A stretch of 64,000 nt of DNA from Octopus vulgaris (taxonomy: Eukaryota), in contig OX597814.1 in assembly GCA_951406725.2 (NCBI GenBank), forward strand, positions 219,852,001 through 219,916,000. The letters are read 5' to 3'. This document shows positions 11,898 through 53,220 of this stretch, in pieces. The position numbers and the translations under genes were made by a program. The first letter of the stretch is position 1; every line of letters begins with the position of its first letter. Under the pieces are notes generated by a model. The model was not told the DNA's origin. It ran no database searches and saw nothing but the letters and a program-made list of their open reading frames with translations.

Positions 11898-13064
11898 CTG
11901 AAAAATAGTAAAACGTTTAAAAATTAATTTTTTTAAATTACAAATCATTCAAATGCTTTTCTTTATTCTTCAGATTTAAGTATACCAACAACCAGAAATT
12001 TGTCGGACATACACGATTAAACAGCAGTATTTTACTCCTATTTCATTTTTGTCAAAAGAATAAGTGTAAAGACGACCCCGGTGAAGTAGGAACTTAGAAA
12101 GCAAAGAGCCAGAATAAATATAGCAAAGCGTTTTGTCTAAATCTCAATATAGCACAGCTTACCGTTTTAAATAACACAGCTTATATAATTCGACTATTAA
12201 AAAGACTGGAATATCCTTGATCCCAAGATTTATTCGACTAGGATTGACCTGAAGAGAAGTAAAAAGAAAAATAGAACTAGTAAAATTCTTCGAAGACATT
12301 TAACTTGAAGGTAGAAAATATAAAACTCAGTTATAGCTTATTCTGAAACAGCATTGATTTGCTCCAAGTCTGCTCAGATAAACAGACCCATGGCATGCTG
12401 CCCAATCACTCAAACATCTAGGTATGGATCACAAAAGAATCGATTTCCCACCGTTCGACCGGTGTTCCAGGTGCATCTACTCCACCTTATAAAAAATCTG
12501 TGAATCATAAACATTTACATTACGGAGTAATAAAAGTAGCAGCAACCTATAACATATGTAAGAGCGTAAATTCAATTTCTTTAAATAGCAGCGAATTTCG
12601 AAAATTCTTTATAGTAGTCACGTAACTATTGGGATTTGAACTATAAGTTAATTCGTCATGTATCGTGTTAAAAAATAATACCGTAAAATGTATATTACTT
12701 GTCGACTAACTAAAATGTTTCTTGCAACTGAAGTTCAATTCCTGATTGTAGTTATTTCGCTTACCAAATACTCTTAGGAAAGACAAGAATATAACCACCT
12801 ATTTTTCCCCTTCGAAATCCATTGGGCTGAACCATACATCTATGCATGATATGAATGGAAAATTGTTTCTCCTAACGCAAAAGTTACGGTAAAAAGTGAA
12901 AAAAAAAAATTATTTTTGTTGAAGTGTAAGTAACTATAAAATAGTTTCGGGTTAATGGTTTCAAAGAAAATTTAGAAATACATCCAAAATTTCTGATGAA
13001 TCGTGAAATAGTCTGAGTTAGATTTAGCTGGTGTCGAGTATTATTGGTGTATCATTTTACACTG

Positions 13065-19663: not shown

Positions 19664-19695
19664 GTAGGAGTGGCTGTGTGGTAAGTAGCTTGCTT
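19664..19695 (+). mobile_element. Orphaned 5' head of a family B SINE (target of the downstream insertions)
   Basis: GTAGGAGTGGCTGTGTGGTAAGTAGCTTGCTT closely matches the heads of uninterrupted copies (reverse complement of 29638-29672 and 36845-36872). Confidence 0.85.
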
Positions 19696-21555
19696 CCGCA
19701 CATGCGCGTCAGGTCGACTTCTTGCCAGTGAACAGTGAGGACGTGAGCTTTGAGCTCCGTCCTAGAAAGAAAAAAGAACAAAAACAGAGAAGGTTGTCGA
19801 GGCAAGTGATTTTGTTTTATCTGAGTTGGGTGTAATTTGTTATATTGTAATTTTTTGTTAACAAATTTCGCCCATTGCTGGGACAATTTCGCCTGCTCTC
19901 GGAGGCTGCTGTTTTGTGAATTTAGTGTGAATTTTTTGGATTCATTTTAAAAAACAGTGGAGGGGTGTATCCTCGGCCGAATGATTAGAACCTGTTACAG
20001 TTGCTGTTGCAGTTACCGTTGGCTGTGACCAGTTTTGTGTTTGGATTTATTGGAGTTCTTTTACCAATTACGGGAAAAAACGATTCATACCAAGGAACCT
20101 ATATGCATTTGACCGGGAATACCTGTGGGCCAGGAAATTGGAGTTTTGCTGAGTGAATTGTTTTCCTTTTTTCCGTCTACCCTTCCTGTTTTGTTTTAAC
20201 TGTTTAATTATTTTTTGGACTTTATTATATTTTTTACTGTTTCTGTTAACTTTTGTGTACCAGTTTTGGACTTATTCTGTGACCTTTGAACTTTCTTTGA
20301 ACTTTCAAGACTTTCTTTTTTGCACATGGCAAAAATAAACGGTGTCGCTGCTTTGGAGTGGGAGGTGGTCCCACCCAAACAGTGGATTAAAGATCTTGAG
20401 AAGAGGACGGTGGTGCTACGGACCTATTCTAGGTCGCGTGGTGCCATCACCCTCTTCGACAAGAGCATAATAGAGAGAGAGAGTTGGCAGACTACCTGCC
20501 AACTATAAAATTTATTTCACGGGGGACCAAATTTGCAACGGTCTGGTTGCTGTTTGGTACCCCCGAGGAAGCTGGCAAATTTGCCAGCGAGCCCCTTGAG
20601 GGGAATGAAATTTTGTTCTCCCCCACGTATTGTGGGAGGAAGATAAGAAGAGCCTGGGTATGCGGGCTGCCCCCGGGCACGGAGGCGGGATGGATCGAAG
20701 ATACCATCCGGCGAGGCCTGGGGGATAGCGGGCCCAGGCTATTGAGGGTGGACGTTGCTCCTGCGGTTGACTGGGAGGGGTCAAAGGCAACTTTGACCCT
20801 GTGGACCCCGGTGGCCATAGGAGATATGACATTCCCAGACTTCCTAAATATGGCCGGGTACAGGTACCTGTGCCTGGAGCCTGGCCATATCAGGAAAAAC
20901 TGTACCAAGGACCGTGGTAAGGCCCTGCAGCATGAAAAGGAGAAAGTGCCCGCCGCCTCTTCATTGGAGGGGGAGACGGTGGAAGTTGCCTCCACGAAAA
21001 GAAAAAGAAAGGTGAGCAACAATGGTTGCTCACCAAAGAATGTTCAGGCGGCGGAGGAGGGTAGCGACCCCCGCGTCTGTCGACGCAGCCCCCTGCTCCC
21101 GCAGCCTCAAAAAGAAAGAGGAAAAAGAGGAGTAGAGGACGGTCGGTGGATGTTCCTGGGCCGCAGGTGGGATAGGGCTCCGTCAGTGGGAAGTGTGCCA
21201 CTGACGGAGCAGTGTGAGGTCCCTTCCTGTGAAGAGGAGGTGTTTGTCCTCTTTTACCACGAGGGAGGGACGGTGAGTAAACTTTTGGATGGCTTGGGTG
21301 GCCGAGAACGTGTGTACTCGGTCTGCCCAAGAAGTCCGATATGGCCTCCGCAGGTGGCTGCGGAGGTAGTAACGGAAAACATTTTGTCAAAGGTCACAGC
21401 AACCTTTGACAAGAAAGAATTTGCTTTCCTCTTTGCAGGCTCCGACTTGTCGTTGCAGAGTTGTCTGCAGGCGGCAAGTCACTTTGCTTGGGGGACCTGA
21501 CAAGGAGAATTGTTGTAAATCTATGTGCTGCCCTAGTGGCAAATTAAATGAAATA
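19696..21555 (+). mobile_element. ORF1-only non-LTR retroelement, subfamily 1 (copy 1)
   Basis: About 630-nt T-rich 5' UTR; ORF1 20326-21500 (MAKING..WEVVPPKQWIKDL, frameshift at an AG run, broken knuckle LCLEPGHIRKNC); short 3' UTR ending GGCAAATTAAATGAAATAAA; no ORF2; flanked by AAGTAGCTTG. Confidence 0.8.
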
Positions 21556-21565
21556 AAGTAGCTTG

Positions 21566-21777
21566 TAAGAGGTTTTAGTGCCTCCTTCTTGTAAGAGATT
21601 TGAAACCTCATTGATTTTTAAAAAAGAAAATATGTTTTCGAGAAAAATCCAATCGGCGGGTGTTGGGTTTCGTCTCTCATTTATTCATTCAATTTCATTT
21701 TCATTCATTAATGTGTTTGTCCAGCCCGCAAAGCTACACAATCGTTGTACTGTCTATATGACAAATTTTATGAAACA
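21566..21777 (+). mobile_element. 5'-truncated 3'-UTR-only copy of the same retroelement family
   Basis: Aligns by eye with the 3' UTR of the 34318-36346 copy (GTAAGAGG..CTTGTAAG, ATGTTTTCGAGAA..CAATCGG); ends GACAAATTTTATGAAACAAAG; flanked by target repeats. Confidence 0.7.
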
Positions 21778-21790
21778 AAGTAGCTTGCTT

Positions 21791-23247
21791 CCGGTTACCC
21801 ATAGTGCATTTAGTTTGTCGTTTGTGTGCGAGTCGGACGTCGGTTTTGTTGCTACGGTAAGACAATGTACTCAGACCTTAGTGGGTCTGAGTTGTCTTCA
21901 GAGGAGGAGCTCGTAAGGGCGGCCATAGCGATGGACAGTATGCTAGAAAAGACCAGGAGTTTTGCAGAGGTCACGGAGAAGAAACGAAGGGAGTTGGACT
22001 TGGCTGGTCTGAAAAATTATGACAAGATGTTACAGAAGGTGGGAGGGGACGTAAGGCTGTCGCCCCCCAAAGGAATTATGGAGAAGATGGAAAGGAAAAC
22101 TATCACCTATAATATGTTCTCTTTAAAAGGAAAAAAGGCTGAGCAGGTGGAAGCGGATACAGAAAAGGCGCCAAGAGAGAAGTCTAAAGAGATTACATAT
22201 ATCACGAAAGGAAAAGATATGGCACCATGGTCGTCCAATTTAGGACAGCTGAAGAGGCAATGAGGCTGGCGAGTGTGGCGGTGAAAACGGAGGAGGTAGT
22301 GCTTCTGCCCACATACCTGGGAAGAAAAACTTCTAAGGTGAGGGTAGAAGCAATTCCACCGGATGTAGAAGTCGCTTGGGTAGCGGCAGCTGTCCTTGTT
22401 GGAAGCGAGGAGGAGGTGGCTGTCCTCCAAGCCACAGAAAGAGAAGAAGGAGGGTGGAAAGGAATGACGCTCGAGTTAATTTTTCAGACGGAGGAGGGAC
22501 AACTCGAGAACTTGGCAAAGACTGTGACGCTGGGGAAATCGTGCTGAGGGTGTGGGTAGAGGGCAGAGTACCACGTTGTTTTAAATGTGGCCAAACGGGC
22601 CACATTAGAGCATACTGTCCTCTACGAAGGACTATGGTTGAGGATATAGTTGCGGAGACAGAAGAGAAAAGAGAGGAAGACAAAATAGACGGAGGAAACG
22701 ATAAAAAGGAGGAAGAATGGAAAGTTGCAGAGCGCAAAAGGAGAAAGAGGAAAAAAAAGAAAAGACACTGAGTATGATGTGGCACCCCAGTCCAACCCCA
22801 TCCCACCCAAGACCACTCAGACCCACCCTCCCCATACAGACATCAAACCCACCCACCCCATTTCCCCTCAAGAAAAAAAGAAAAAGAAAGAAAATACACC
22901 ACAAAATTTAGAAGAACCCCCCTCCCGGTGAAAAAGGTTATGAATGCATGACGGAAAGAATGTTATCTTTAAGTGACAGGGAAAAGGGAAAAAAGGATTG
23001 GACGAAAAGAGAAAAAGGACTCAGGACCCAGAGACAGCGAGTGGTGTTACTCAGTGTGGGGTGAGTAGCACACTCTTCATAATATCATTTTCAGATATCA
23101 TTCATATTATCATATTTTAATTTATTCTTCATGTGCATTTTCATGTTCATTCATTATATCATATTCTATTCCTTAATTGTTATATGTCCCCACATGTGTT
23201 GTAGTGTCCCCTCTGTGTATTGCCTTTATGGCAAATTTAATAAAATA
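21791..23247 (+). mobile_element. ORF1-only non-LTR retroelement, subfamily 2
   Basis: Frameshifted ORF1 21865-22931 with V.V.F.T.EEA, LLPTYLGR..KVRV..IPP and intact CCHC knuckle CFKCGQTGHIRAYC; AT-rich 3' UTR ending GGCAAATTTAATAAAATAAA; no ORF2. Confidence 0.8.
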
Positions 23248-23260
23248 AAGTGGCTTGCTT

Positions 23261-24606
23261 ACGCGCATGCGTGTTTGTTCGTTGCTTATTGGATTGAACA
23301 CTGTCAAGACCGTTGGTGGCCGTCTTGAATCGAAGAACTGTTGAAGAGGCGCGACTGCAAGGTAGGCACTTGCTTTTTTTTTGTTTTAGGGATTCGGTGG
23401 GGATTTTGTTGCTTGACAATGTTTTTCTTTTTTCAAATAAGAAAGTCTTCATTGGGTCTCGAACATTTGTCGGCTGCAGCCACGCTCAAGTAACTCACTT
23501 ACCGGTGCGAATTGTTTTGTTCTGGTGAGCGTGTCTCACTACCAAAATTTGAAAAGTTTATAAAAATTCGACCCATCCGTGGAAGAATGTGGTTTTTTTT
23601 TGTTTTGGTGAGCGTGTCTCACTACCAAAATTTGAAAAGTTTATAAAAATTCGACCCATCCGTGGAAGAATGTGGTTTTTTTTTTTTTTTTTTGCTACAA
23701 TGAACTGGAGTACCAGTGTGAAGCAATATTCTGGAGGATTACCTGTGGACCCGGATTATCTAAGTGGTGGAATTGTGTTGCCGTGCTGGAACTGTTTTCC
23801 TTCGTTCTTTTCTCTGCTCTGTCTTTTTGTTCTTTCTTTGTGTTTCTTTGGACTTTTATTTGAATATTTTGAACTTTTTTCTTGAACATTTTCCTGTTTT
23901 TGTTTTTTTAAAAAGCATGGCAAAAAATAAAAACACTGTCTTTGAGGGGGAAATTGTGCCTCCCAGGCAGTGGGTAAAGGACCTTAATGAGAGAGCGGTG
24001 GTGTTGAGGACATATTCCAAGTCCCTCGACACCATCACTGTGTTCTCTCAAGTACATATTGAGAAGGAGTTGGCAGAATACCTGCCAACCATCAAGTTTA
24101 TTGCAAGGGGTGTCAAATAGGCAACTGTACTTCTTACCGGGCTGTTTGGTTCGTACAATATTGTGGAGAGGGAAATGTTTAGTTCCTTTTTGATGACTTC
24201 CAGTCCACATTATGAAGGTTTCTTGATTTACATTTTTGGCGGGGTATTGAAAAGCTGTGGGCTTTTGAACCCTAAGTTATAGCAGTACTTAGTCCCGATT
24301 TTAGATAGAGTGGGCGGTACCTTTTGGGGAAAAAATGGCGTCCAGTTCGGAAATTTATATAACACTCTATGCCGAAATTAGGTACTAGCTCTTCCAGAAT
24401 TTTCCATTTATAGATTTTTACATATCTGTCCGCCTTCGCTCCAAGGAATGAAGTCATAGTTTTTTCGGCCTCTTCCTGTTGTACATCTGCTACACTCTCT
24501 CAATTTTTTTAGTGTAGTGAGGTTGGACTTTTTCAAGCTTCATTGATACAAGTTATCTGCATGTGGTTGCTATTTGATACCCCTGAGGAGGCTCGCATTT
24601 TTGCAA
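23261..24606 (+). mobile_element. Subfamily 1 retroelement (copy 2), interrupted and 3'-truncated
   Basis: ORF1 from 23917 (MAKNKN..GEIVPPRQWVKDLNERAVVLRTYSKS) is homologous to copy 1; resumes WLLFDTPEEAR near 24564 after an inserted segment; ~80-bp tandem duplication in the 5' UTR (23523-23690). Confidence 0.75.
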
Positions 24607-24609
24607 TTT

Positions 24610-25800
24610 ACTAAATGATACACAGCATGGCTTCCGCCCTGGAAGAAGCTGCCTCACATAACTCTTACAGCACTATGACTGGGTTTTGAAACAGCTGCTT
24701 GACCATTCAGATATCAATATGATATATCTTAACTTTGGAAAGGTACATCGTTGTATGATGTGTCAGAATCTGCGAGACATTGGCACAGCTGGTAAACTGG
24801 GAGAGTAGCTGCATGACTTCCTAAATGATAAAAGCCAGGCAGTTGCAGCCAACGGCACTCTCTCAGAGGAAACCCGCAGGGAACTGTCTTGGGGACCATT
24901 ACTATTTATATTCGCTCTCTTAGATATACCCATGATCACTCAGACAACCACTGTCACTAACTATGCTGATGACACAAAATTATAACAGACAAAAGAGAAC
25001 TCAAACGATGTCACAAGTTTACAGCGGGACTATATGCAATATACAAGTAGGCTGAAGATAATAACATAAAGTTTAATGCTGGAAAATTTCAAGCATTGCG
25101 CTATCAGCTCATAAATGCAGCCTGCATATACAGGACCCAAATGGACTGCAATCCCAGAGTCACAGACAGTGAAAGATTTAGGTATCAGTATGTATAATGG
25201 TGCATTATTTCATATGCACGTTACTAACATGGCAGTAACATGAGATAACTGGCAGGATGAATACTAAGATCCTTCAAGACCAAGATGCCATGTTCATCCG
25301 GTGGAAGACCCTTTGTTCTCAGCCGCCTGAACTATTGCTCTCAGCTGTGGTCACACATAGTGCCAAACTAACAGTGAAGCTTGAAAAAGTCCAACCTTAC
25401 GACACTAAAAAAATTGAGAGAGTGTAGCAGATGTACAACAGGAAGAGGCCGAAAAAACTATGACTTCATTCCTTGGAGCGAAGGCGGACAGATATGTAAA
25501 AATCTATATATGGAAAATTCTGGAAGAGCTAGTACCTAATTTCGGCATAGAGTGTTATATAAATTTCCGAACTGGACGCCATTTTTTCCCCAAAAGGTAC
25601 CGCCCACTCTATCTAAAATCGGGATTAAGTACTGCTATAACTTAGGGTTCAAAAGCCCACAGCTTTTCAATACCCCGCCAAAAATGTAAATCAAGAAACC
25701 TTCATAATGTGGACTGGAAGTCATCAAAAAGGAACTAAACATTTCCCTCTCCACAATATTGTAAGAAGTACAGATGTGGGAACAGAGTCAAACTACCTTA
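24610..25800 (+). pseudogene. Degenerate CR1-like LINE reverse transcriptase region
   Basis: PQGTVLGPLLF and NYADDTKL motifs at about 24875-24980, KDLGI, L.YCSQLWS; many stops. Confidence 0.8.
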
Positions 25801-25957
25801 CATAGCAAATGGACCAACAACAAAGACAAAAAGCTCACACAGAAATGGTGATATACAATTCCACCACCATGAAGAAATCAGCCAAAGAAGAATGATGTGT
25901 AAAAATACAAAATCACGGCGGTGCTTCAGGAATATGGTTAAAACGAGTATATATATA

Positions 25958-26677
25958 CTAGCAGTAATACCCGTCGTTCATCGGATAATTACTTTTACTC
26001 TTTCTCAGGAGTCACATTCAAATTATTATTACATATATAATAGATTTCTCAACGGGGATTTCAGGGGAGAGTTTCAGGGAGTCGCTGGCGATGTATCGTG
26101 GTGATCAAAAATCCGGCCTGCTAAAATTTGGTTAAAGTGATTCAAACTGCAGACTCAACGCAAAATGGTCACAATTAATTCCAAAGCGTTAAAAATGTTA
26201 TGAAAACAATTGGTATGTGTTCACAAAGTCCAAACGATTAATACGAAAAAATCCTCCAGGCTACATCCCGAAAATTCATTTCTTTGCCGAATTTCTACAA
26301 TGTTTACGGCGATTCGTTTTTATTTCTTGATTTTTTATTTTTGATGCAATTTACGCATGCTTGCACGCATGGTGAACACAGTTCACGTCAAACAGCTGAG
26401 TAAAGTTCACTATTCAATGCATGGGATAAGGCCTAAACAAACACATTATCGATCTTTGCACTTGCGAGATGAATTTCGGAACAGGGCCGATGTCGGACCC
26501 CCCTGGCACCTGTGCAGGTGGCACGTAAAAAGCACCCACTACACTCGCGGAGTGGCTGGCGTTAGGAAGGGCATCCAGCTGTAGAAACTCTGCCAGATCA
26601 GACTGGAGCCTGGTGCAGCCCCTGGCTTCCCAGAACCCGGTCGAACCCGTGCTAGCGCGGAAAACGGACGTTAAACA

Positions 26678-26718
<41 letters not shown>

Positions 26719-26876
26719 ATAGCGCAGTTCAATTTTCATTCGCCTAAACTTTAAGTGACCCATTTTTGGTGGTTCTACGATTTGTTGGCTAGGAGGAGAT
26801 GTGCCGGGAAGTTAAACACACAGACACACACACACATACACACACAGACACACAAGTTGAGTTTTATATATAGAGA
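25958..26876 (-). mobile_element. Non-autonomous Helitron (second family) containing a nested SINE-like insert
   Basis: Minus strand starts TCTCTATATATAAAAC and ends with imperfect hairpin CCGATGAACGACGGG then CTAG, between host A and T. Confidence 0.7.
26490..26716 (+). mobile_element. Retroposon 3' fragment with (GAT)n tail (RTE-related)
   Basis: GGCACGTAAAAAGCACCCACTACACTC...GGACGTTAAAC then (GAT)n; second copy at 47480-47833. Confidence 0.7.
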
Positions 26877-28084
26877 TATGTATAACCCTATTGATATGCT
26901 CTTTGGCTTGTCACCTCTCTTTTCTCTTTCTTAATGCCTGTTTACAACGCCATGCATAATCCTTTCTATTTTAGGCTCACGGTCTGAAATTCGTGGAGAG
27001 GGAGGTACTCGGTTACATCGATCCCAGTATTCAACTGGTACTTATTTTATCGAGCCCGAAATCAATGAAAGACAAAGTTGGCGACGGTTCCATTTGAACT
27101 CAGAACGTAGAGAGCCGGAAGAGATGCCGCTAAGCCTTTTGTCCGTGCAGCAATGTTATTTAATCACTAAAAATAGCTTACATTTAAAAAATGATTTTCA
27201 ATCTATCGTTTGCCTTTCGTTACTTCAAACATATTTACGATCTCATGGGTATTGAAATTCTTCTAATTCCATTATGAATTGTACTTCCACAGGTATACAA
27301 ACATCAGTTTATTCATCTGAATCAACATTTCTTCTCAGGGGATTTTCCTATTTCTCACAAATACTCGAAATGGGGTGTTGAACTACTCTTCTTTCCTGCA
27401 AGCCACCCCCACTTCCTGTTGAACAGAGAGAAAAAGAAGATGAAGAGTGTCATAGTAACCAATTACTTGCTATCGTGAGCAGAGTGTGTGAGTATTTGGA
27501 TGAAAGTGAGACAGTTGACACCTCTCCCAAAGTCTTATTATTCGCTATGTAAAAATGAGAACTTGGTTTCTATTCTACAAAACCGAACTGATGGACTTAG
27601 AAGTAATTAATTATCAAGTAATTAACTGATTCTTTACGCAGGAACCAGGTCACGCATTTCTGGACAGGGTACAGACGTTTTTAAACTGGCTCCAATATTA
27701 GAAATATACGTTCTTCTTTCAAGTATTATTGTTTTTCATCTATACTGTATGCTCGTTGAAGGAGTGCCGCCAAATGTGACTTTTGCCGACATGGCCAGAC
27801 ACACGAGATCATTGGAAGTGATGTCCAGTTTAAAATTCTAGAGGATGACGCTTTTGGGGATACTGCAAGTAGTGTTAGAGCACCAAAGTGTTTCAGTTCG
27901 GAGAGAGAGGTTTAGTGAATGGTAAGACACAACAAAGGGGATGAGCTGAGGAGTCCCAGTTCATTCGGGTTGATCGGAGAGGAGGTAGTACACTGCTTAT
28001 TTGGTTGTAGGACTTGTACCTGGAGAAGAGACAAAAAAAAAAAAAAAAGAAAAAGGAAAAGAAACTGTGGTTGTATGTTTCGTC

Positions 28085-28425
28085 TACACTCACCTCTTTA
28101 TGAGAGCTCAAAATCTCTCGTGGAAGCGCCATCCAACCAAAATGCAAATATATGGGAAACTACCACCTGTGTCATCTCTTGTGAAAGGTAAGAGAGTCCA
28201 GTTTGTTGGACATTGTTGTAGAGCTGAAAAAGAGGTAATTTCTACTCTTCTCCTCTGGAAGCCATCTACGCGCAATACCAGAGGGCGCACACTCTCCTAC
28301 CCTGATGTAATCTCCAGGGATACAGGCATCCAGCAACAGGACCTCCGTAATGCCATGATGGACCGTGAAGTCTGGCGTAGCATGGTAAATTCCATTGTCT
28401 CGACCACGGTCGAACAATGATGATG
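28085..28425 (+). mobile_element. 5'-truncated RTE-like LINE
   Basis: ORF2 C-terminus (QFVGHCCRA..EVISTLLLWKP, M.DREVWR); short (ATG)n tail; 10-bp TSD ATGTTTCGTC at 28075 and 28426. Confidence 0.8.
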
Positions 28426-29249
28426 ATGTTTCGTCACTGGATAATAAATTTATTTTTTATTTGAATAAAAATAAAGTTAATACAAATAAGCCTCTTTTTG
28501 AACAGTTGAATTTTATTTCAATGGGAAAATAATGTTCCTTCTGTTAGAAAATTTGGAAAAGCCCGGAAATCAAACAATGTGTCTGTAGGGCTAGTAAGAG
28601 TTGATAAGTAAAAAAGTGAATCTTTGCTAAACAAGCGGTTTATATTAACAGTGGTAGAAACAATTACAGTAGCGATGGAAGCAAAGATGGAAAACAGTGT
28701 GTCTGTGGGCTTGCAGTTGCAGTGGTTAGAGTGAATTATTGTCAAGCAGGCGAACGACAGCTTTTGATTTAGACGTAGCCTTAATCAGTTATATAGGCAG
28801 CAGCTGCTCTGCCTCAGACATGTGAACAGTACTTTAATACGGGTCACACCCAGGCTCCGTAGAGGGTCATCAGTTGTCTCGAACTGAAATGTTTTCTGAC
28901 ACTAAGATATCTAGCTGTACAGTTTTTAGCATGCTTACAGATTTGTCGTCGCCTTAAAATATTGCAAGAGCTGGTGAGCTCTAGTATTTGTAATGAGTTT
29001 GTAAATTTTAGTTGTGTTCTTCAATAGGGATGGTAAGGCTTGACAATGATTTTCTTTGATGAATAATGACTGTTTCCCGCTCATGAGTAACAAAATACAA
29101 CGTTTCGTTTTCGACATTTAAAAATGTATTGATAATATCTAATAATGATAATTTTCTGAAAAAACAGCACAAGGCCAACTATTTTTGGGTTGGTGATGTG
29201 GGAGGGAGGAACAAATTGATACTTACGACCCATGTATTTAACAGGTACT

Positions 29250-29447
29250 CTCTTTTACTCTTTTACTTGTTTCAGTCATTTGACTGCGGCCATGCTGGAG
29301 CACCACCTTTAGTCGAGCAACTCGACCCCGGGACTTATTCTTTTGTAAGCCCAGTACTTATTCTATCGGTCTCTTTTGTCGAACCGCTAATGAACGGGGA
29401 CATAAACACACCAACATCGGTTGTCAAGCAATGCTAGGGGGACAAAC

Positions 29448-29500
<53 letters not shown>

Positions 29501-29670
29501 CATATATACGACAGGCTTCTTTCAGTTTCCGTCTACCAAATCCACCCACAAGGCATTGGTCGGCCCGGGGCTATAGCAGAAGACACTTGCCCAAGATGCC
29601 ACGCAGTGGGACTGAACCCGGAACCATGTGGTTGGTTAGCAAGCTACTTACCACACAGCCACTGCTGCGC
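29250..29670 (-). mobile_element. Complete, uninterrupted family B SINE
   Basis: Head GGCGCAGCAGTGGCTGTGTGGTAAGTAGCTTGCTAACCAACC, B box GGTTCAGTCCC, central (TA)/(TG) tract and family tail. Confidence 0.88.
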
Positions 29671-30770
29671 CTAATAATAATAATTTTCTGAAAAAAAGCC
29701 CAAGGCCAACTATTTTTGGGTTGGTGATGTGGGAGGGAGGAACAAATTGATACTTACGACCCATGTATTTAACAGGTACTTTATATTATCTATTGCATAA
29801 TTGGGACTCAGAACACAAAGAGCCGGAGAAGTACCGCAAGGCATTTAGTCCGACTCTGTAACGATTCCGCCAGCTCAGTATCATATAATGATGATTGTGA
29901 TATCTTAATTCGAACTATGGATTATTTCTTAACCCTAGTTATTTTTCTTTATGCAGTTTGTGGAAGGAGTTTGATTTTGAGCTACAAATATCAACCCTTC
30001 CGTTACCTTCTTCAAAACGCCTTTTTATAGCCACTTCGCAGATCCTTCAATACTTCTTATTTTTTCTCTGTCTATCTAACGTTTTGTTTCTCCACAATTT
30101 TCTTTCCCTCCTCATTTTTTTCATATCATCACTTATGGTTTACATACAGGCCTTCATCTATTAATTTCTCATTGATTGTGCTAATATACGCGACTAGATT
30201 GTCTTCCTCACTCTCAACATATTCAGTTATGCTTTGTTGATCTCTGCCTCTTTCTTTCTCGGGGACATATATGAACTTTATATCACCCTGGGAGTGGTTA
30301 TAAACCAGTTCATCGTTTAGTTTTTTCTTGTTTTCCTGTCCATTTTCTTTTCTTTTTTTAGCAACTTTCCTTTATATCTTCTTACTATACATGTACTGTA
30401 CCTTACAAGTAACATTGCCCATGAATTTATAACTATCATAGTGTTGTCTCCATTGGCTTTTTAGTATGTCTGTAGCATTCTTTTCGGCTGATATATTTCA
30501 TGTCGTTATGAAGTATTTTATCTACTTCCCAGATAAAGAGGTATTTGTATGCTTTCATTCAACTCAATCACCTTGATAACTTCTCTGGAGGTCAACACCA
30601 ATCTACCTCTCCTTGATACTTTCCCCACTTTTCAGTTTCAGATGACAATATCTCTTCAGTCTAAATTCTATTTTTTTGTTTCTTTTTTTTTTATATTTGC
30701 AGTCTAGCATCGAAGCAATCGTCTAATGCTTTCTCCCCAAAATTGTGGAACTTGTGGCATAATTTGAAAC

Positions 30771-32913
<2,143 letters not shown>

Positions 32914-33649
32914 GGTGGCGAGCTGGCAGAATCGTTAGCACGCCGGGAAAAATGCTTTGCAGCATTTCGTCTGCCTTGACGTTCTGAGTTCAAATTCCGC
33001 CAAGATTGACTTTGCCTCTCATTCTTTCGAGATCGATAAACTAAGTACCAGTTACACAAGCGCCGACTTGTTGATATCACACAATTAAACGGCAAACGAA
33101 AATGGCAATTATACACCTTACGCTTAATAACTTGAAACGACTAACTGCGGACTAATTCAACTTAAATCATCCACAGGAGTGCACCTTTATAATAAATTAC
33201 ACCGTCCAAAAACGGGTGCATTTGCTAGTGTGTGTATATATAAACTTTGAATAGATTTACTGAGGTGATCCCTTTTTGCAACCATAGGTTTTCGTCCACC
33301 TTTTTGAAAGTGTATAGAAATAAAAGGAGATGTAATAAAATTGTTTAGTGTTACGGGGATTTGAAACCGGCGCGGTTAAATTTCTGCTAATATGAGTGTT
33401 TAGCAATAGACATTTTTTTCTCCAAACTTTTAGAAAATTTGGACTGGTCTGCTGATGGGTTTTCTTTGAAATAATATAACATTTTCATAAAAATGTTTTA
33501 CTCTGTGACATGCTACAGCAATTCTGAGTCCAGATTCGGAATCAGCGCACTCGATTTAGTTTATTACAGCACCATTTGTCTGGTAGCAGACAATAAAGTT
33601 TTTGTTGCCCAGTGTTATTTTTTCTGATGCTCTACCGTTTCTACTATGA

Positions 33650-33950
33650 AGGCGCATGGCTCGGTGTTTAGGGCGTCGGACTCAAAATCATGAGTTTGTG
33701 TGTTCGATTTTTTGTTGTGTTTGTTGTGTTCTTGAGCAAGACACTTTATTTCACGTTGCTCCAGTTCACTCAGCTGTAGAAATGAGTTACGATGTCATAG
33801 GTGCCAAGCTGTATCGGCCCCTTTGCCTTTCCCTTGGATAACATCAGTAGCGTGGTGGGCGGAGACTGGTATGCATGGACGACTGCTGGTCTTCCATAAA
33901 CAACCTTGCTCGGACTTGTGCCTCGGAGGGGAACTTTCTAGGTGCAATCC
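33650..33950 (+). mobile_element. tRNA-derived SINE family C (CORE-like middle)
   Basis: GGCGCATGGCTC head and TTGAGCAAGACACTTTATTTCAC..CTCCAGTTCACTCAGCTGTAGAAATGAG; second copy at 56008-56313 (-). Confidence 0.75.
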
Positions 33951-33954
33951 TATT

Positions 33955-36385
33955 CTGTTACACTTACTTGTTTCAGTTATTTGACTGTGGCCATGCTGGA
34001 GCACCGCCTTTAGTCGAACAAATCGACCCTAGGACTTATTCTTTGTAAGCCTAGTACTTATTCTATCGTTCACTTTAGCCGGACCGTTAAGTTAGGGGCA
34101 CGTAAACACACCAGCATCGGTTGTCAAGCGATGGTGGGGAGACAAACACAGACACACACACACACACATGCATATACAACGGACTTCTTTCAGTTTCCGT
34201 CTACCAAATCCACTCACAAGGCTTTGATCGGCCCGAGGCTATAGCAGAAGACATTTGTCCAAGGTGCCACACAGTGAGACTGAACCCGGAACCATGTGGT
34301 TGGTAAACAAGCTACTTTATTTCATAAAATTGGCTATGCAGCCTTACAAAGATGTAGCTGCGGGTTGGACAAAGACACAAATGATAATGGAATGGAAAAA
34401 ATGGTTGGTGGGGGAAGCAGACAACGCCCACCGATTGCTGCTTCTCGAAAACATTGTTCTCTTTTTCTCAACAACACAAAATGAGGTATTGAACTTCTTA
34501 CCACAGTTCAAAGAATGGACACAATCGTCCTTACAAGATGAGACGCTGAGCCTCTTACCAAAAAATAACAAATTCAAATCGAGGTACTAAGGCCTCTTAC
34601 CTTTCCTCCTCGACCAGGCTATATGCCGCCCGCAGGCAATCCTGCAGTTCTCAGTCGGGGCTCCAAAAAGCAAAACTATATTGGTCCTTGGGAAAGGAGT
34701 CAAGGAGTCCATCACCCTGAACATATCATTCTCCAAGTTACCTGCGGAAGCCAATCCGGGTCTTCAGTCCAGGACAGGATCCCCTCCTCCGTCTCTCTAG
34801 CTTCACAAAGCTCTGTACAGCTCCTTCCTTATGAAAGAAGATCACAAAATCATCCTTCGTTATAATGGGAGTGGCCACAGTTTCCTTCGTCGATGGCACA
34901 ATTCCCACTGATGAGGTTTCAGGACATGCCGGCAGTGTACTACTAACCGCCGATAATGTCCCATTCTTCGTCTTCATTTTTCTCCATTGTGCTACGGGAG
35001 GGTGTAGTTCCTCTGCTTTATCCGGAGGATATTCCCTCCTTCCCGCAGCCTTGAGGTCCTTCGGTAGGCAACCATTGTTTCCCACCTTCTTCCTTTTTTC
35101 CCCTTTTTTCGAGGAGGTCTCCACCTCTTCGATTGCCTCCATGTCTCCCTTTAAAGGAGGGGCAACTACTTTTATTAACTGCTCCAGGACCCTACTTTGG
35201 GCCTGGGGGACAGTTCTTCTTAATATGGCCCAGTTCCAGGCACAGGTGACACTTGGTGGGGAGGGGTGTCCCTTAAGTATCACTGGGTACCTGTAATCGG
35301 CCATTTTCATAAAATCTGGAAATACCAGACCTTTAGCGGCTGATTGGGTCCATAGGGTCAAAACCGCTTTTGACCCCACCCAATCAGCCGCCGGCAACAA
35401 TTTCACAATTAAAAGCTTGGGCCCGCTGCCACCCAGACCCCGGCAGATAGTGTCCTCTATCCATTGCAGTTCAATGCCCGGTGGAAGCCCACAGACCCTA
35501 GCTCTTCATAATTTCTTCCCACAATATATGGGAAGAAACAGAATCTTTTGCCCTTCTTAGGGCTGGCTCGCAAATTTGCGAGCCACCTCAGGGGTGTCAA
35601 ATAGCAACAACACCTTTGCATATCTAACAGCCTTGGAAATAAGCTTAATTAATCTTTTTCTATTTCTGTCTTAGGAAAGACCGCGATGGTGTCGAGTGAC
35701 TTAGAATAAGTCCTCAACACCACAGTTCTTTCCTCTAAGTTTTTTAACCATTGCTTAGGTGGGATAATTTCCCACTCCAACGCAGTGTTCAATTTCTTCG
35801 CCATGCTTTGAGGAAAAAGTTCAGAAAAAAAAAACAAACAACAGAAGTCCAAACAAAGTCAAAAAACATTTCGGAGGAAGACAAAGAAGAGAAAAAGAAA
35901 GAAGGAAGACAGTTCAAATCACGGCAACACACAATTACAGCCAGCCTGTACTCCTGGCCAACAGGTACTCCAAAAGGTATTCCAAAAGTGAACAGGGACA
36001 CAGCAGCAGGAACACAACTTCAAAAAAATCCGCCATAAATAGGTAAAAATTCAGAAAATTTTCCAAATAAATTTCAAAATTTTTGTGGGCGGGATTCGCC
36101 CCCAAAACAACACAATTCTCACAATTAAGTGAGACAGCGCAACTGTAAGCAGACAAATGTCCCGGAATCCAGTGGGTATTTCTTGTTCGAAAAAATAATG
36201 GACATCAAACAAAAAACCCCACTGAATCCCCCAAAACAAACGTCCTACCTTACAGTTGCGTCTTCAAAGTTCTTCAATTCTATACAGCTGCAAAGCAACG
36301 TCTTGACTACACCAGTGCTGTAGTAAACTAACTAACGCATGCGCGTAAGCAAGCTGTTTACCACACAGCCACTCTTGCGCCTATA
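33955..36385 (-). mobile_element. Family B SINE split by a retroelement insertion (head 36347-36385, body 33955-34317)
   Basis: Joining the two halves and removing one 13-bp repeat restores a full SINE like 29250-29670. Confidence 0.85.
34318..36346 (-). mobile_element. ORF1-only non-LTR retroelement, subfamily 1 (copy 3, full length)
   Basis: ORF1 from 35804 (MAKKLNTALEWEIIPPKQWLKNLEERTVVLRTYSKS..DWVGSKAVLTLWT) is homologous to copies 1 and 2; 3' end GCCAATTTTATGAAATAAA; 13-bp imperfect TSD at 36347-36359 and 34305-34317. Confidence 0.85.
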
Positions 36386-36706: not shown

Positions 36707-36872
36707 CATATATACGACGGGCTTCTTTCAGTTTCCGTCTACCAAATCCACTCACAAGGCATTGGTCGGTCCGGGGCTATAGCAGAAGACACTTGCCCAA
36801 GATGCCACGCAGTGGGACTGAACCCGGAACCATGTGGTTGGTTAGCAAGCTGCTTACCACACAGCCACTCCT
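36466..36872 (-). mobile_element. Family B SINE, uninterrupted
   Basis: Near-identical to 29250-29670. Confidence 0.88.
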
Positions 36873-40291: not shown

Positions 40292-40533
40292 TATTCATTA
40301 AAATTTTAAAATCATAACGTCTTATCATCCTGATCCTCATATTGCAATTACAAGCACTGATGGACCGCCTCCCCTGTAAGACTTCCATTGTTTGTCCCCG
40401 ACCCCTCCTTCTTATTATATCTATGTATGCCTGTCTGTCTGTTTGGTTTATTCATTCAACAAGTAAGGAATTAATTTTTGCTTTTGTTTGTTGTCCTTTA
40501 AAGGAATTTCTTTTTCTGCTTGTGGTTTCCGTA

Positions 40534-42720
40534 GTTCTGGATCAGAACTACGACCCCACCTCCCCCTCCGGTTCGACTAGGAGACATGATTTTCTCATAA
40601 CCGTTCAGGAGAGGTGTGAAAGCCTGCAACTAGTCCAACTTGGTCTCTGTAGCAGCCATCACATTTATTCTGTGTGACCTGAGGCCCTCGAGGTAACAAG
40701 CCTGCTTCCTCTTTGACCCCAAGCCAAGCACATTCAAACATCCGATCTTTAATGTAGCCATGTCAGTTGAAGAAGGAAAAAAAACGCTGAGCTTACCTTT
40801 CTCATTTTTCTCGGTTTTATACTAGAGGAGGAAAGTCCTTAGTACCACCCGCACTAACCCCTCCTCCTCCTTCCTCTCATACAGGAATGGTTCTATCCTG
40901 GATTAAAAATTTTCGGCAGGTCCTTCATTTCCACAATGTGTCCTCTATGTCTTTCTTTTCATTCAAGATACAAGCTTTGTGGCAGTTTGGCTACCGTATC
41001 TATGTTTTTAATGTTATTTTTATATATCTTCGTTTGACGATGGGGCTTATAACCTCATCTAAATATTTATTTTGTGTTTTGTATACGACTATCGTAAGAT
41101 CCTCCTTCTTGAATAGTTTTATCGTGCTTAGTCCCATCGTTTCTTTTTTAGGGCTTCCTATAGGTTTTTCCGTAGTTTTTACCATTTTCATTTTTGGAGT
41201 CGCCTCTTGAATCTTTGAAGGCGACGCCATTTTCTGACGGCATTTACGTGTCACCGTTTGGAAGTCCATTTCTTCTTCTGATAGTATCACAGTAGTTTTT
41301 TCTTTTCCTCCGGCATTTCGCTGGTATTAGAGGAGGTGGACACCCGATGTGTAACCGCCTCCTTGGCGGGGGCGTCTGCATCTTCACGGTCACCCCTTTT
41401 GTAATTGCCTCCTTGGCTGGGGGTGCCGTAATATTGATGTTTGCCGATGCCCTCTTCGTAACAGCCTCCTTAGCTAGGGGCGCCGGTGCTCCTTTTTCCT
41501 AGGGGTTTGCCGACGCCTTCTGCGTAACAGCCTCCTTGGCTGGAGGTGCCGGCGTTTCTTTTTCCTTCGAAGAGATGGTGGCTTTCTGTGTAATAGCCTC
41601 CTTGGCTTGGGGTACCATCTCTTCTTTATCTTCCTCATCCTTGTTCTTAGGGCATTTTGACATAATGTGCCCTTTCTTGTCACATTTAAAACATCGTGGT
41701 CTTCTCCCCTCAACATTTACAGGTAATATAGTCCCCTCCCCGATATGAATGGTTTCGGGGAGGTTTTCTAAGACTTCGAATGAAGCCTGGGCCAGAATCT
41801 CCAGAGTTTGACCCCACCAGTTTTGCGTGGCATCCCTGGAAACCTGGATGATATTTATTTTTTCCTCCCTGCCGAAAAGGATGGAGACGGCTATCCACGC
41901 CGCTTCCACCTCTGGAGGAATATTTTAAATTTTCATTCGGACCGTCCTTCTACCTAGATACAGCGACAAAAACAGTATATTTCCACTTTGCACGGTTCGA
42001 GTCGAGAAGTCTCTAGCCTTCTCGGCTTCTATTGTCGCAAACCTTGTGCCTCTGGCCAGGTATTTGATTTCGTTTAACGCCAGCCAGAGGCATTTTTCGA
42101 TTGCTGATTCTTCTAAATGTTCGAATCTTTTTTTTTTTTTCCCAGGATTGAAGACTTTATAAATTATAGTCTTTTCTTTGGTTCTAGTTATCATTTCCCC
42201 AGGCGCCGTCAGTTTGCTTTGTCCTTCGGTTTCTGTAATTAGTCCGAAATACTGTTGTATTTCTTTTTTTTTTTTTATTCAATTTTTTTCCCCTTCGCCT
42301 ACAGCGACGGCAAAATTCAACTTCTTTGGCTGTTCGAACAAAGCCATTTCACAATAATAATAATTTCACAGAAAAATATACGAGAATAGAAAAATAGTCT
42401 TCCGCGAGGAATGCAGTTAAACAAGTTACACAAAAATTTTTCTACACTTCCTCCAAGGGAGAGGACAACAAAAATTATTCACAATAGAATAATAAATCAA
42501 CGTTTCCCTACGGAAACCACAAACAGAAAAACAAATTCCTTTGAAAGATGACACACAGACAGACACTGAGTGAACAGACAGGCAAGAGTGATTTCTTTAT
42601 TTGCCTATTCAAGACAAACGTAGAGAGGACAAACAATGACAGACTAGACACCACAAGTGGGGACAAAAACATAAACAGGTGAATGAAAGATGACGATGAC
42701 GATGAAATGTCCACTCGGCC
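40534..42720 (-). mobile_element. L1/Tx1-like LINE 5' portion: 5' UTR, ORF1 (CCHC) and start of the ORF2 APE endonuclease
   Basis: ORF1 from about 42347 with YLARGTRFATIE, LYLGRR, VEGRRPRCFKCDKKGHIMSKC; ORF2 ATG at 40761 reads MATLKIGCLNVLGLGSKRKQACYLEGLRSHRINVMAATETKL then GGGVVVLI (APE N-terminal motifs). Confidence 0.8.
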
Positions 42721-43067
42721 CGACCTCCGAGCAGTACCGTTATCAACTATATTTTACCTCTGTTTTAAAACTTACGTTTATCAAAATAGATATCTTAATA
42801 AATGAAATGTGTTTTTAATTTTCAAGTTCTACCTCAGGATGGTAGATAGTCGTACCCAACGGGTTTACTTCGTCACCGAAGCTTGCCAATTGCCTATTCA
42901 AGGCATATATATAGGGGAAAAAACAGAGACATACAAGACATCCCCAGAGGGGACCAAAATTATAAACGGATGAATAAAATTAACTATATTTGCCTCTATT
43001 TTTAAGCTTACGTTTATCACAATAGATATCTTAATAGATAAAATGTGATTCTAATTTTTCATTTTCT

Positions 43068-43248
43068 AGCACCTGATCACCATCCACGTAGCGTCGGAAG
43101 TACCTCAGCCTCAACGCATGCTTGCGCATCATTGGCCGAGGCAACGCCAGTCCTCCCTTTAACGGTTTCTGGCAGCAGATGGAGCACCCCACAAGTGGTG
43201 GCTTCCCCTTCCACAAAGAGCGGAAAAAGATCCGTTCAAACTTGGTCA
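43068..43248 (-). pseudogene. L1/Tx1-type ORF2 fragment (post-RT region)
   Basis: [14 protein letters not shown]....GGLALP resembles the FLW..GGLG.P segment that follows RT in L1-clade ORF2. Confidence 0.6.
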
Positions 43249-43249
43249 G

Positions 43250-45184
43250 TCATCCACCCATCCATCCATCCATCCATCCATCCATCCACCCATCCATTCA
43301 TCCATCCATCCACCCATCGACACGTCCATCCATCCACCCATCCATCCATCCATTCATCCATCCATCAATCCATCCACCCATCCATCCATTCATCCATCCA
43401 CCCATCCATCCATCAATCAATCAATCCACCCATCCATCCATCCATCCATCCATCCATCCATCCATCCATCCATCTATCCATCCACCCATCCATCCATCCA
43501 CCAATCCACCCATTAATCCATCCATCCACCCATCTATCCATCCATACATCTACCCATCCATCCACAATCCATCCATCCATCCATCCACCCATCCATCCAT
43601 CCATCCACCCATCCATTCATCCATCCATCCATCCATCCATCCATCCATCCATCCATCCACCCATCCATCCATCCATCCATCCACCCATCCATTCATCCAT
43701 CCATCCATCCATCCATCCATCCATCCATCCATCCACCCATCCATCCATCCACCCATCCATCCACCCATCCATCCATCCATCCATCCATCCATCCATCCAT
43801 CCATCCATCCATCCATCCATCCATCCATCCATCCATCCATCCATCCACACCATCCATCCACCCATCCATCCATCCATCCATCCATCCATCCATCCGACCA
43901 TCCATGATCCATCCATCAATCCACCCATCCATCCATCCATCCATCTATCCACCCATCCATCCATCTACCCATCCATCCACCCAGCCATCCATCCATCTAC
44001 ACATCCATCCATTCATCCATCCACCCATCCACCTATCATCCATCCATCCATCCACCCGCCCATCCATTCCATCCACCCATCCATCCATCCATCCATCCAC
44101 CCATCCATCCATCCATCCATCCACCTATCCTTCCATCCATCCACCCACCCATCCACCCATCCATTCATCCATCCATCCATCCATCCACCCATCCATTCAT
44201 CCATCCATCCATCCATCCATCCATCCATCCATTCATCCATCCATCAATCAATCCACCCATCCATCCATTCATCCATCCACCCATCCATCCATCCATCCAT
44301 CCATCCATCCATCCATCCATCCATCCATCCATCCATCCATCCATACATCTATCCATCCACCCATCCATCCATCCACCAATCCACTCATTAATCCATCCAT
44401 CCACCCATCCACCAATCCATCCATCCATCCATCCACCCATCCATCCATCCATCCACCCATCCATCCATCCATCCACCCATCCATTCTTCCAATCATCCAT
44501 CCATCCATCCAACCATCCATCCATCCATCCATCCATCCATCCATCCATCCATCCATCCATCCATCCATCCATCCATCCATCCAACCATCCATCCATCCAT
44601 CCACCCATCCATCCACCAATCCATCCATCCATCCATCCATCCATCCATCCATCCATCCACCCACCCATCCACCCATCCATTCATCCATCCATCCATCCAT
44701 TCATCCATCCACCCATCCATCCACCCATCCATCCATCCACCCACCCATCCACCCATCCATTCATCCATCCATCCATCCATCCATCCATTCATCCATCCAC
44801 CCATCCATCCATCCATCCAACCATCCATCCATCCATCCATCCATCCATCCATCCATCCATCCATCCATCCTCCCATCCATCCATCCACCCACCCATCCAC
44901 CCATCCATTCATCCATCCATCCATCCATCCATTCATCCATCCACCCATCCATCCACCCATCCATCCATCCATCCATCCATCCATCCATCCATCCATCCAC
45001 CCATCCATCCATCCATCCATCCATCCAACCATCCATCCATCCATCCACCCATCCATCCACCCATCCATCCATCCATCCATCCACCCATCCATCCATCCAT
45101 CCATCCATCCAACCATCCATCCATCCATCCATCCACCCATCCATCCATCCATCCATCCATCCATCCATCCACCCACCCATCCAT
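43250..45184. repeat. ~1.9-kb (CCAT)n tetranucleotide array
   Basis: Direct inspection; CCAC, TCAT and CAAT variants interspersed. Confidence 0.97.
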
Positions 45185-45241: not shown

Positions 45242-45628
45242 ACTCTCTTACTTGTTTCAGTCATTTGACTGCGGCCATGCTGGAGCACCGCCTTTAGCCG
45301 AGCAAATCAACTCCGGTACTTATTCTTTGTAAGCCCAGTACTTATTCTATTGGTCTCTTATGCCGAACCGCTAAGTGACGGGGACGTAAACACACCAGCA
45401 TCAGTTGTCAAGCAATGCTTGGGGGACAAACACACTCACACATATATATATATATATACATACATATATACGACGGGCTTCTTTCAGTTTCCGTCTACCA
45501 AATCCACTCACAAGGCATTGGTCGGCCCGGGGCTATAGCAGAAGACACTTGCCCAAGATGCCACGCAGTGGGACTGAACCCGGAACCATGTGGTTGGTTA
45601 GCAAGCTACTTACCACACAGCCACTCCT
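45242..45628 (-). mobile_element. Family B SINE, uninterrupted
   Basis: Matches 29250-29670; older plus-strand relatives follow at about 45760-46400. Confidence 0.85.
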
Positions 45629-52025: not shown

Positions 52026-53220
52026 TAAATTTCACCATCTTTACTGGCTGTTTTCATTGTTTAATTCTCTATCAAGCTGGCTTATAATAGGTAGTGTACT
52101 CATTTTCCCAGCAGGGCACCAATCTGAAATGTATAGATATTTGATACAGTGGTATTAGTATAATAAAAAGTGTGGAAATTATTATTCCTACTGACAGGTT
52201 TCCTGAATATAATCAGCCATAACAAAATAGTCAGAGCTCATGACTCTGGAAAATATGACCAACACTGCTTAATTTTAATTCCTTCTTGTCTGTTGTAATC
52301 TATCTAACTTAGGCAATCGATCAAAAAATATAATTTCTTATTGGGGAAGATAATAGAAAGGCATTTGTGAGTATGTGTGTGAAACAGTCTTCCATATATG
52401 TAATGTTATGTATATTACCAAAACTCTATCTTTGTCATCTATGTCACTGCATTGTGCTTCGTTAGAGCACTATTCTACCTAAGCACAAAGCAATTTCATG
52501 ATTCTAAGATAGAATTTGTAATGTTTTTACTTTCAGTATCCAATTCTTGTTTAATAAAATGGATGCTAATTTTTGAAACTTGAGAATCCCCACCCCACAC
52601 TCTGCAAATCTTACAGTTCAGCTTTTGCCTAAAACTCAAAGAAGTATATTTCCAAATTACAAAGATCCTGAGGAGTGGTTCTCAAATCTGGTTTTGGGTA
52701 GTTTTAAGTGAAGGATATATAAGTTTACTATCTATAGATCACACCAAAAAGCATTTGTCGTTACTTTAGATGCAAAAATATAAAATAAGAATACGAAAGG
52801 AATGGAGAAGTGGAATGAAAAATATTGTTTAATTATTGAAGCAAGAAGTAGATTAGTTGATATGATGTATGCAGAGGCATGAGGTGGGGTGTCGAGGAGG
52901 GAACTGGTGCATGTTGGGGCATACGTTGTGATCAATAGAGATAAAGCTCAGTTGAATGAGTGAACACACAAACATGATGGGGTGAAGGAGGGGACGCTTT
53001 GGTGCTGGTGAGGTTCAAATAATATATACTCTCTCTCTCTCTCTTTTCTCTTTTTACTTGTTTCAGTCATTTGACTGCGGCCATGCTGGAGCACCGCCTT
53101 TAATCGAGCAACTCGACCCCGGGACTTATTCTTTGTAAGCCCAGTACTTATTCTATCGGTCTTTTTTGCCGAACCGCAAAGTGACGGGGACGTAAACACA
53201 CCAGCATCGGTTGTCAAGCA

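Follow-up and report, generated by a model that had tools for sequence, protein, structure and literature searches.

ORF1-only elements of a probable Tx1-like LINE at a single site in the head of a SINE of Octopus vulgaris

Introduction

A stretch of 64 kb from the genome of Octopus vulgaris (contig OX597814.1, positions 219,852,001 to 219,916,000; hereafter the window), AT-rich and repeat-dense, contains four elements, designated A, B, C and D, which carry the first open reading frame (ORF1) of a long interspersed element (LINE) and of which the complete ones lack a second (ORF2). The locus raises the question of whether such elements are LINEs that lost ORF2 copy by copy, or members of families that multiplied in this half form. 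The second answer is preferred here, with a probability of roughly 0.72: A to D would be non-autonomous families of a Tx1-like LINE that possess only ORF1 and depend for their movement in trans on an ORF2 specific for a site in a short interspersed element (SINE), in a manner resembling HAL1 or TRE5-A.2. The analysis concerns this one window, in which each ORF1-only family is represented by one copy.

Structure of the elements

Three elements (A, B and D) are bounded on both sides by target duplications and count as complete, with lengths of 1.46-2.03 kb. The positions of these and of the incomplete members are as follows.

19698..21555, + strand: element A, 1858 nt, with a 628-nt 5' untranslated region (UTR), ORF1 at 20326-21500 and a 55-nt tail similar to that of B.
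21566..21777, + strand: D-type 3'-UTR piece, 212 nt, defined by alignment to the 3' UTR of D and by its junctions.
21793..23247, + strand: element B, 1455 nt, with a 72-nt 5' UTR, ORF1 from 21865, a CCHC knuckle at 22574-22621 and a 3' UTR of about 170-180 nt.
23263..24607, + strand: element C, with a 5' UTR of the A/D type and the first ~85 codons of ORF1 (23917-24137 and 24562-24607), the 3' part being lost.
34318..36344, - strand: element D, 2027 nt, a solo insertion with a 540-nt 5' UTR, a broken ORF1 at 35804-34597 and a 279-nt 3' UTR.

The distance from the ORF1 stop to the 3' end is 55 nt in A, 279 nt in D and, as judged by eye, about 170-180 nt in B. With 55-280 nt remaining after ORF1, an ORF2 cannot be present in A, B or D, and by this measure of length it is absent from all three complete copies. 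No endonuclease or reverse transcriptase (RT) was found by Pfam in 31 downstream frames, a result that is uninformative, since control pieces from the relatives E and F described below likewise gave none; Pfam searches with 58 short frames, control pieces included, returned nothing relevant. A preliminary description of this DNA had located the copies accurately within 2 nt, the last bases of the target duplications having been counted in, and its account of three both-ended copies made up of a 5' UTR, an ORF1 with a whole or vestigial CCHC knuckle and a short 3' UTR, with no room for an apurinic/apyrimidinic endonuclease (APE) and RT, was confirmed. Its statement that all complete copies lack ORF2 is correct for the three of them and has to be supplemented, as the window also includes incomplete relatives that probably possessed ORF2 (E, F and F2).

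The knuckle of B matches Pfam zf-CCHC above the cut-off (E 7.6e-5). In A the first cysteine was removed by an in-frame deletion of 13 codons, leaving a remnant match to zf-CCHC with E 0.13, and in D the knuckle is frameshifted. The ORF1 of A contains one frameshift near 20470 and that of B several; stops or frameshifts occur in every ORF1 of these elements and none is intact, which identifies them as dead copies, and intact or domesticated genes were ruled out on the same ground. The 5' end of B shows no homology to the 5' ends of A, C and D, its completeness resting on the flanking duplication and on an ATG located 72 nt in.

In element C, ORF1 is interrupted at about codon 85 by an unrelated RT element (24600-25770). 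This RT was considered as the ORF2 of C and ruled out, as it cuts ORF1 at that codon and starts in the middle of the RT; from its motifs we take it to be of the CR1 type. Its 3' part is present as a 399-nt inverted duplication (24150-24548 and 25369-25767, 98%), and the 5' UTR of C contains an 83-nt tandem duplication (23515-23689).

The sequence that follows A, 21564-21777, matches the 3' UTR of D from 65 nt past the stop of D (local alignment, z 25, 0/200 shuffles). The 212-nt piece at 21566-21777 most probably represents an insertion of its own, truncated at the 5' end and showing CTTG microhomology. Alternatively, A may extend to 21777 and the piece may be its own 3' UTR, an option kept alive by the fact that the piece and its counterpart in D begin equally far from the respective ORF1 stops. 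Two repeats starting with GTAAG were noted at 21564-21615 (+ strand).

Target site in the head of a SINE

All five insertions (A, the 212-nt piece, B, C and D), distributed over two loci, occupy one site in the head of a SINE, and every junction carries the same target word of ~15 bp. The site-specific insertion proposed in the preliminary description is supported by this result, which also supplies the target that had not been named there. The host is a multicopy repeat of ~420 nt, five empty heads of which are found within the window. The parts of the host SINEs and the target duplications are located as follows.

19666..19697, + strand: 5' part of the host SINE head of A, recognised by blastn to an empty SINE copy (19666-19694 at 97%), by alignment and by motif.
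19683-19697, + strand: upstream target duplication of A, 15 bp, which ends this part of the SINE head.
21556..21565, + strand: shortened target duplication after A, 10 bp.
21778..21792, + strand: target duplication between the 212-nt piece and B, by motif.
23248..23262, + strand: target duplication between B and C, by motif.
36345..36380, - strand: 5' part of the host SINE of D, 36 nt, including the upstream target duplication at 36359-36345.
33954..34317, - strand: 3' part of the host SINE of D, which begins with the downstream target duplication.

D is flanked by both halves of its SINE, with the target word duplicated, and over 140 nt the 3' half shares 90-91% identity with three young empty SINEs. 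A, the 212-nt piece, B and C constitute a head-to-tail array in which single copies of the target word separate the members. Duplications of this kind at the insertion site are typical of target-primed reverse transcription. When up to three mismatches were allowed, the target motif occurred 16 times against 3.3 expected; six of these occurrences are element junctions and five are empty SINE heads, the shortened junction at 21556 lying outside the pattern match.

A different view of the target would be that the true one is an RNA gene of the host, such as a tRNA gene, for which the SINE head is a look-alike, or that SINE and element spread as a single unit. Inspection by eye indicated A-box-like and B-box-like words of the tRNA type in the SINE head, between which the insertion site presumably sits. 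Searches with ARAGORN and Rfam found no tRNA in the window or in the head, and no ribozyme or snRNA; moreover, both loci lie in SINE heads, and the tandem and 5'-truncated insertions show that the site was cut anew. Although relatives of the Tx1 clade do target RNA genes (PMC4494074), we regard this view as unlikely, and it leaves the ORF1-only reading unaffected. A CORE-SINE, OR2, has been named for octopus (PMC4758252).

The youngest three empty SINE heads (29635-29649, 36841-36855, 45597-45611, - strand), which are 97-99% identical, share GCTAAC beside the top-strand cut, where the occupied sites read GCTTAC or GCTTCC. It is possible that GCTAAC represents a subfamily marker or an escape from cutting.

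Probable relatives with ORF2 and the question of its loss

The relatives mentioned above lie together on the minus strand.

40537..42590, - strand: element E, with ORF1 from 42347 containing zf-CCHC; an ATG at 40761 opens an APE-like N-terminus that ends after ~75 codons.
42590..43245, - strand: F2 and F, in tandem with E, with tails that resemble that of B and the same terminal hairpin.

The ORF1 of E is homologous to that of elements A to D. Its APE-like piece covers positions 4-77 of the Pfam Exo_endo_phos profile with E 0.067, below the cut-off, and gave no relevant PDB match; a search for longer proteins related to it found none among 70 candidates. From their motifs, with no match in Pfam or PDB, F and F2 are taken to be pieces of the ORF2 C-terminus or thumb followed by the 3' UTR. 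E, F and F2 are thus probably relatives that carried ORF2, and they may constitute a microsatellite-associated Tx1-like family. E is not inserted at the SINE site, and F and F2 likewise lie elsewhere, so that they are cousins of A to D and probably not the helper. An inverted copy of an E-like 5' UTR (40410-40540, + strand; 86% over 50 nt) meets the shortened ORF2 end of E. A (CATC)n array of 1.9 kb (43251-45184) abuts the 5' end of F.

The probable existence of ORF2-bearing kin such as E gives some weight to the explanation that the ancestor of each copy was an autonomous ORF1+ORF2 element, ORF2 having disappeared from every one by a private deletion, at insertion or later, or through recombination within arrays. 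All copies are decayed, F seems from its motifs to be internally deleted, and A combines a B-like tail with a D-like ORF1, as a deletion within the array could yield. This explanation is opposed by the structure of D, a solo insertion retaining both SINE halves and both duplications, and by the space after ORF1, which leaves room for at most a few dozen ORF2 codons. Moreover, random breakpoints would very rarely produce three clean losses that leave no recognisable ORF2: a null model of single deletions gives 0.3-0.6% per copy and ~1e-7 for all three, a crude estimate with uniform breakpoints and assumed sizes. Loss of ORF2 copy by copy is accordingly considered rather improbable.

Homologues, lineages and selection of ORF1

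The best protein match of A ORF1 was XP_029652367 of Octopus sinensis (59% identity, E 1e-65), and the remaining named matches to ORF1 belong to O. sinensis and O. vulgaris. Searches for homologues of A ORF1 gave one match among 2623 candidates, five in a representative set of 1.84 billion and four among 7999 scored by alignment; no ORF1-ORF2 fusion was seen among these homologues, which carry no DNA context. In the ORF1 tree A, C and D cluster with the O. sinensis protein P0001, which is not the window's own sequence, with support of 100/100, and B groups, less firmly placed, with E and other octopus proteins. The last 16 residues of D stand in the wrong frame in this tree, and C and P0003 fill less than half of the columns. 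B represents a second, distant ORF1 lineage apart from A, C and D. Two near-identical ORF1-like proteins, P0005 and P0007, from O. vulgaris and O. sinensis, are kin to B and E; the name of P0005, 'EPM2A-interacting 1-like', looks like a misannotation.

In Pfam, ORF1 matched zf-CCHC and not Transposase_22. A hint of an RRM came from Atlas leads obtained through stored homologues (zf-CCHC/RRM_1/ZCCHC3-RBD clusters), with scores of 0.89-0.93 and TM under 0.5, and PDB sequence searches returned zinc-knuckle matches or noise only.

Selection on ORF1 was estimated from nonsynonymous and synonymous differences (pN/pS) and divergences (dN/dS) on DNA alignments, which superseded a protein-guided alignment that held misaligned codons near frameshifts. 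Between A and D, 118 codons of the RRM-like region gave dN 0.26, dS 1.00 and pN/pS 0.40 (95% interval 0.27-0.58), and 46 N-terminal codons gave pN/pS 0.29 (0.16-0.48). The dN/dS values were 0.11 for A-C and 0.16 for C-D, and off-frame controls gave 0.75-1.43. The ORF1 of A, C and D was thus under purifying selection in the N-terminus, the RRM-like region and the knuckle, with dN/dS of 0.11-0.26 at dS of 1 or more. For the preliminary description, the features to look for were an intact ORF1 and purifying selection on it; the selection was found, over the N-terminal two-thirds, and all copies proved to be broken. The host SINE of D is only ~10% diverged from young copies, and with dS of 1 or more it follows that the separation of A, C and D far predates the insertion of D. 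They would therefore appear to be old families distinct from one another, the ORF1 of each being under constraint.

The 3' ends

Poly(A) is lacking at all four 3' ends located at the SINE site. In each of them AATAAA (AACAAA in the 212-nt piece) is finished by the first AA of the target, and as the signal is completed only by these bases, transcripts may read into the target. A terminal hairpin of 4-5 bp, 13-16 nt before the target, was found at the same four ends with differing stems, the background being 4.1% per end; it recurs in F, and F2 forms it using a G-U pair. Over these six ends 85.7% of the cells pair, a value reached by 1/500 shuffles. With moderate confidence, the terminal hairpin can be regarded as conserved. 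In other LINEs, stem-loops are a mark of stringent 3' recognition (PMC3747384); accurate reverse transcription by R1Bm needs downstream target sequence, and in SART1 target-like words anneal (PMC7265360).

The tail of B resembles the 3' UTR of F2 (z 5.6), which is not at the SINE site, and the D-type piece shows a weak match to it (z 4.3, 1/200 shuffles). The 3' UTR of D (z -0.4) and the tail of A (z 0.5) show none, the former, with 279 nt, being close in length to the UTR that follows the presumed ORF2 end in F2 (233 nt). The shared 3' tail reported in the preliminary description is borne out, with a covarying hairpin and no poly(A); the tails of A and D differ if A ends at 21555.

Four repeats starting with GTAAG, each followed by a short possible stem, occur in the 3' UTR of D (34600-34480, - strand), and the first of them holds the ORF1 stop. 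The GTAAG repeats resemble the target word GGTAAG, and their folding is not better than that of shuffles.

The end of ORF1 in E and the ORF1 stop of D both read GAAAG-GTAAG, a splice-donor-like word. It could be argued from this that the elements arose over and over as by-products of autonomous masters, ORF2 being removed each time by splicing or by a template jump of the RT, at a common junction and with no replicating lineage, which would account for both the clean loss and the selection on ORF1. D, however, still has its four GTAAG words, whereas splicing would have taken them out. Homology of the 3' UTR of D to the spacer between the ORFs of E was rejected, the comparison being no better than chance (z -0.2). 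Many full-length siblings would also be predicted at SINE sites, and none of the three complete copies is full-length. An origin as by-products is therefore held to be improbable.

Proposed mechanism

It is proposed that A to D are the decayed remains of ORF1-only families which go back to a Tx1-like (L1-group) LINE in the octopus genome. Their source elements would have been transcribed and would have supplied in cis their own CCHC-type ORF1 RNA-binding protein, the endonuclease and RT being borrowed from an autonomous relative. The endonuclease of this helper would cut one site in the SINE head, the bottom strand at GGT/AAG and the top strand ~15 bp on; the staggered cut would produce the ~15-bp duplication, and re-use of the duplication would generate head-to-tail arrays. 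The conserved 3' end, consisting of the hairpin and an AT-rich stretch, is probably recognised by the helper, and transcripts that run into the target sequence may start reverse transcription by annealing to the nicked strand, with no role for poly(A). Membership in the Tx1 clade is likely, as suggested by the target specificity and the type of ORF1; no RT core of this group was present in the window.

Several observations weigh against this proposal. The window contains no SINE-targeted ORF2, and with one copy per family a common ORF2-deletion junction is presumed. F appears to carry an internal deletion of ORF2, so such deletions do occur, and the selection on ORF1 may date from a time when the lineages had not yet lost ORF2. 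Between A and D the C-terminal ~80 codons (pN/pS 0.89, interval 0.58-1.36) and the linker (0.82) give no signal of selection (0.64 on the protein-guided alignment), which makes the homology of the ORF1 ends a soft claim; their 3' ends, if A stops at 21555, differ in spite of the related ORF1s. As regards the hairpin, it was chosen after inspection and the ends compared are related, RNAalifold gave no consensus structure on a longer alignment of five tails, and single tails fold no more stably than shuffles (z -1.5 to +0.7).

It is tempting to speculate further on a layered guild in the octopus genome, in which two or more ORF1-only families of deep divergence depend on a common helper endonuclease. 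The SINE would offer a self-expanding safe landing site, cut between its two promoter boxes so that hit copies are silenced; the poly(A) signal would be completed by target bases, priming would occur by pairing with the target, and young SINE subfamilies may escape by means of GCTAAC. This extension is tentative, and as a whole we think it doubtful.

Comparison with known systems

HAL1 is a non-autonomous derivative of the L1 group with ORF1p as its sole product and with more than one origin (PMC5753468, PMC5786205), and A, B and D share with it the presence of ORF1 and the absence of ORF2. The octopus ORF1 differs in being of the CCHC type with no match to Transposase_22, which sets the elements apart from true HAL1; the insertions also differ in being sequence-specific, without poly(A) and in a mollusc. 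TRE5-A.2 of Dictyostelium is likewise ORF1-only, is mobilised in trans by the ORF2 of the full element with a boost from ORF1 in cis, has an essential structured 3' module and integrates in a targeted manner (PMC3159450). The octopus elements would be analogous to it above all, being ORF1-only and integrating in a targeted manner; TRE5-A, in contrast, integrates ~50 bp upstream of tRNA genes via TFIIIB/C, and the octopus elements are found at one base of a SINE head with a fixed duplication. HeT-A and Ag-Sponge are also non-autonomous bipartite LINEs in which ORF1 is present (PMC5786205), but they derive from the Jockey and CR1 clades.

Target-specific LINEs of the Tx1 clade insert into multicopy sequences, including transposons, as exemplified by Xenopus Tx1L in Tx1D, Keno in U2, Kibi/Koshi and the crocodilian Tx1-Mar, with SINEU-3 as a passenger (PMC4494074). 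They share with A to D the sequence-specific insertion with target duplication, and tandem copies that sandwich a single duplication (PMC4494074); an ORF1 with RRM and zf-CCHC also fits Tx1 (PMC5203782), the CCHC part having been matched here. The targets listed in the accessible part of PMC4494074 are DNA transposons, LTR elements, microsatellites, satellites and small RNA genes, with no SINE among them and no ORF1-only Tx1 family. For O. vulgaris 80 consensus families of L1-Tx1 have been reported, in a paper whose accessible part says nothing on their targets or on ORF1-only forms (PMC13282606). In the open-access literature, subscription papers and curated repeat libraries being outside the scope, neither an ORF1-only Tx1 family nor a SINE-targeted LINE was found to be reported, and PMC8869645 and PMC11203168 yielded no information specific to such elements. 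The half design is thus known, the SINE target and the combination appear to be undescribed, and the SINE-head target is the most unusual part of the system.

The ORF1-only LINEs described so far belong to the L1, Jockey and CR1 clades or stem from Dictyostelium, and a Tx1-like version would bring a further clade into this set; if the proposal is true, SINEs join the known targets of site-specific LINEs. The elements would also provide a natural system for studying the benefit of ORF1 in cis to non-autonomous elements and the recognition and priming of a 3' end devoid of poly(A). For the annotation of octopus repeats it is relevant that elements of 1.5-2 kb look like unknown genes, their relatives being annotated as uncharacterised and, in one case, as EPM2A-interacting 1-like.

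Other features of the window

The window contains four further features, all on the minus strand.

1271-2603, - strand: remnant of a BED-finger transposase.
6158-7766, - strand: piggyBac-type transposase (DDE_Tnp_1_7, E 5e-64).
53214-54233, - strand: RT remnant (RVT_1, E 6e-6).
9366-11948, - strand: open frame of 860 codons with no Pfam match, probably a large host exon.

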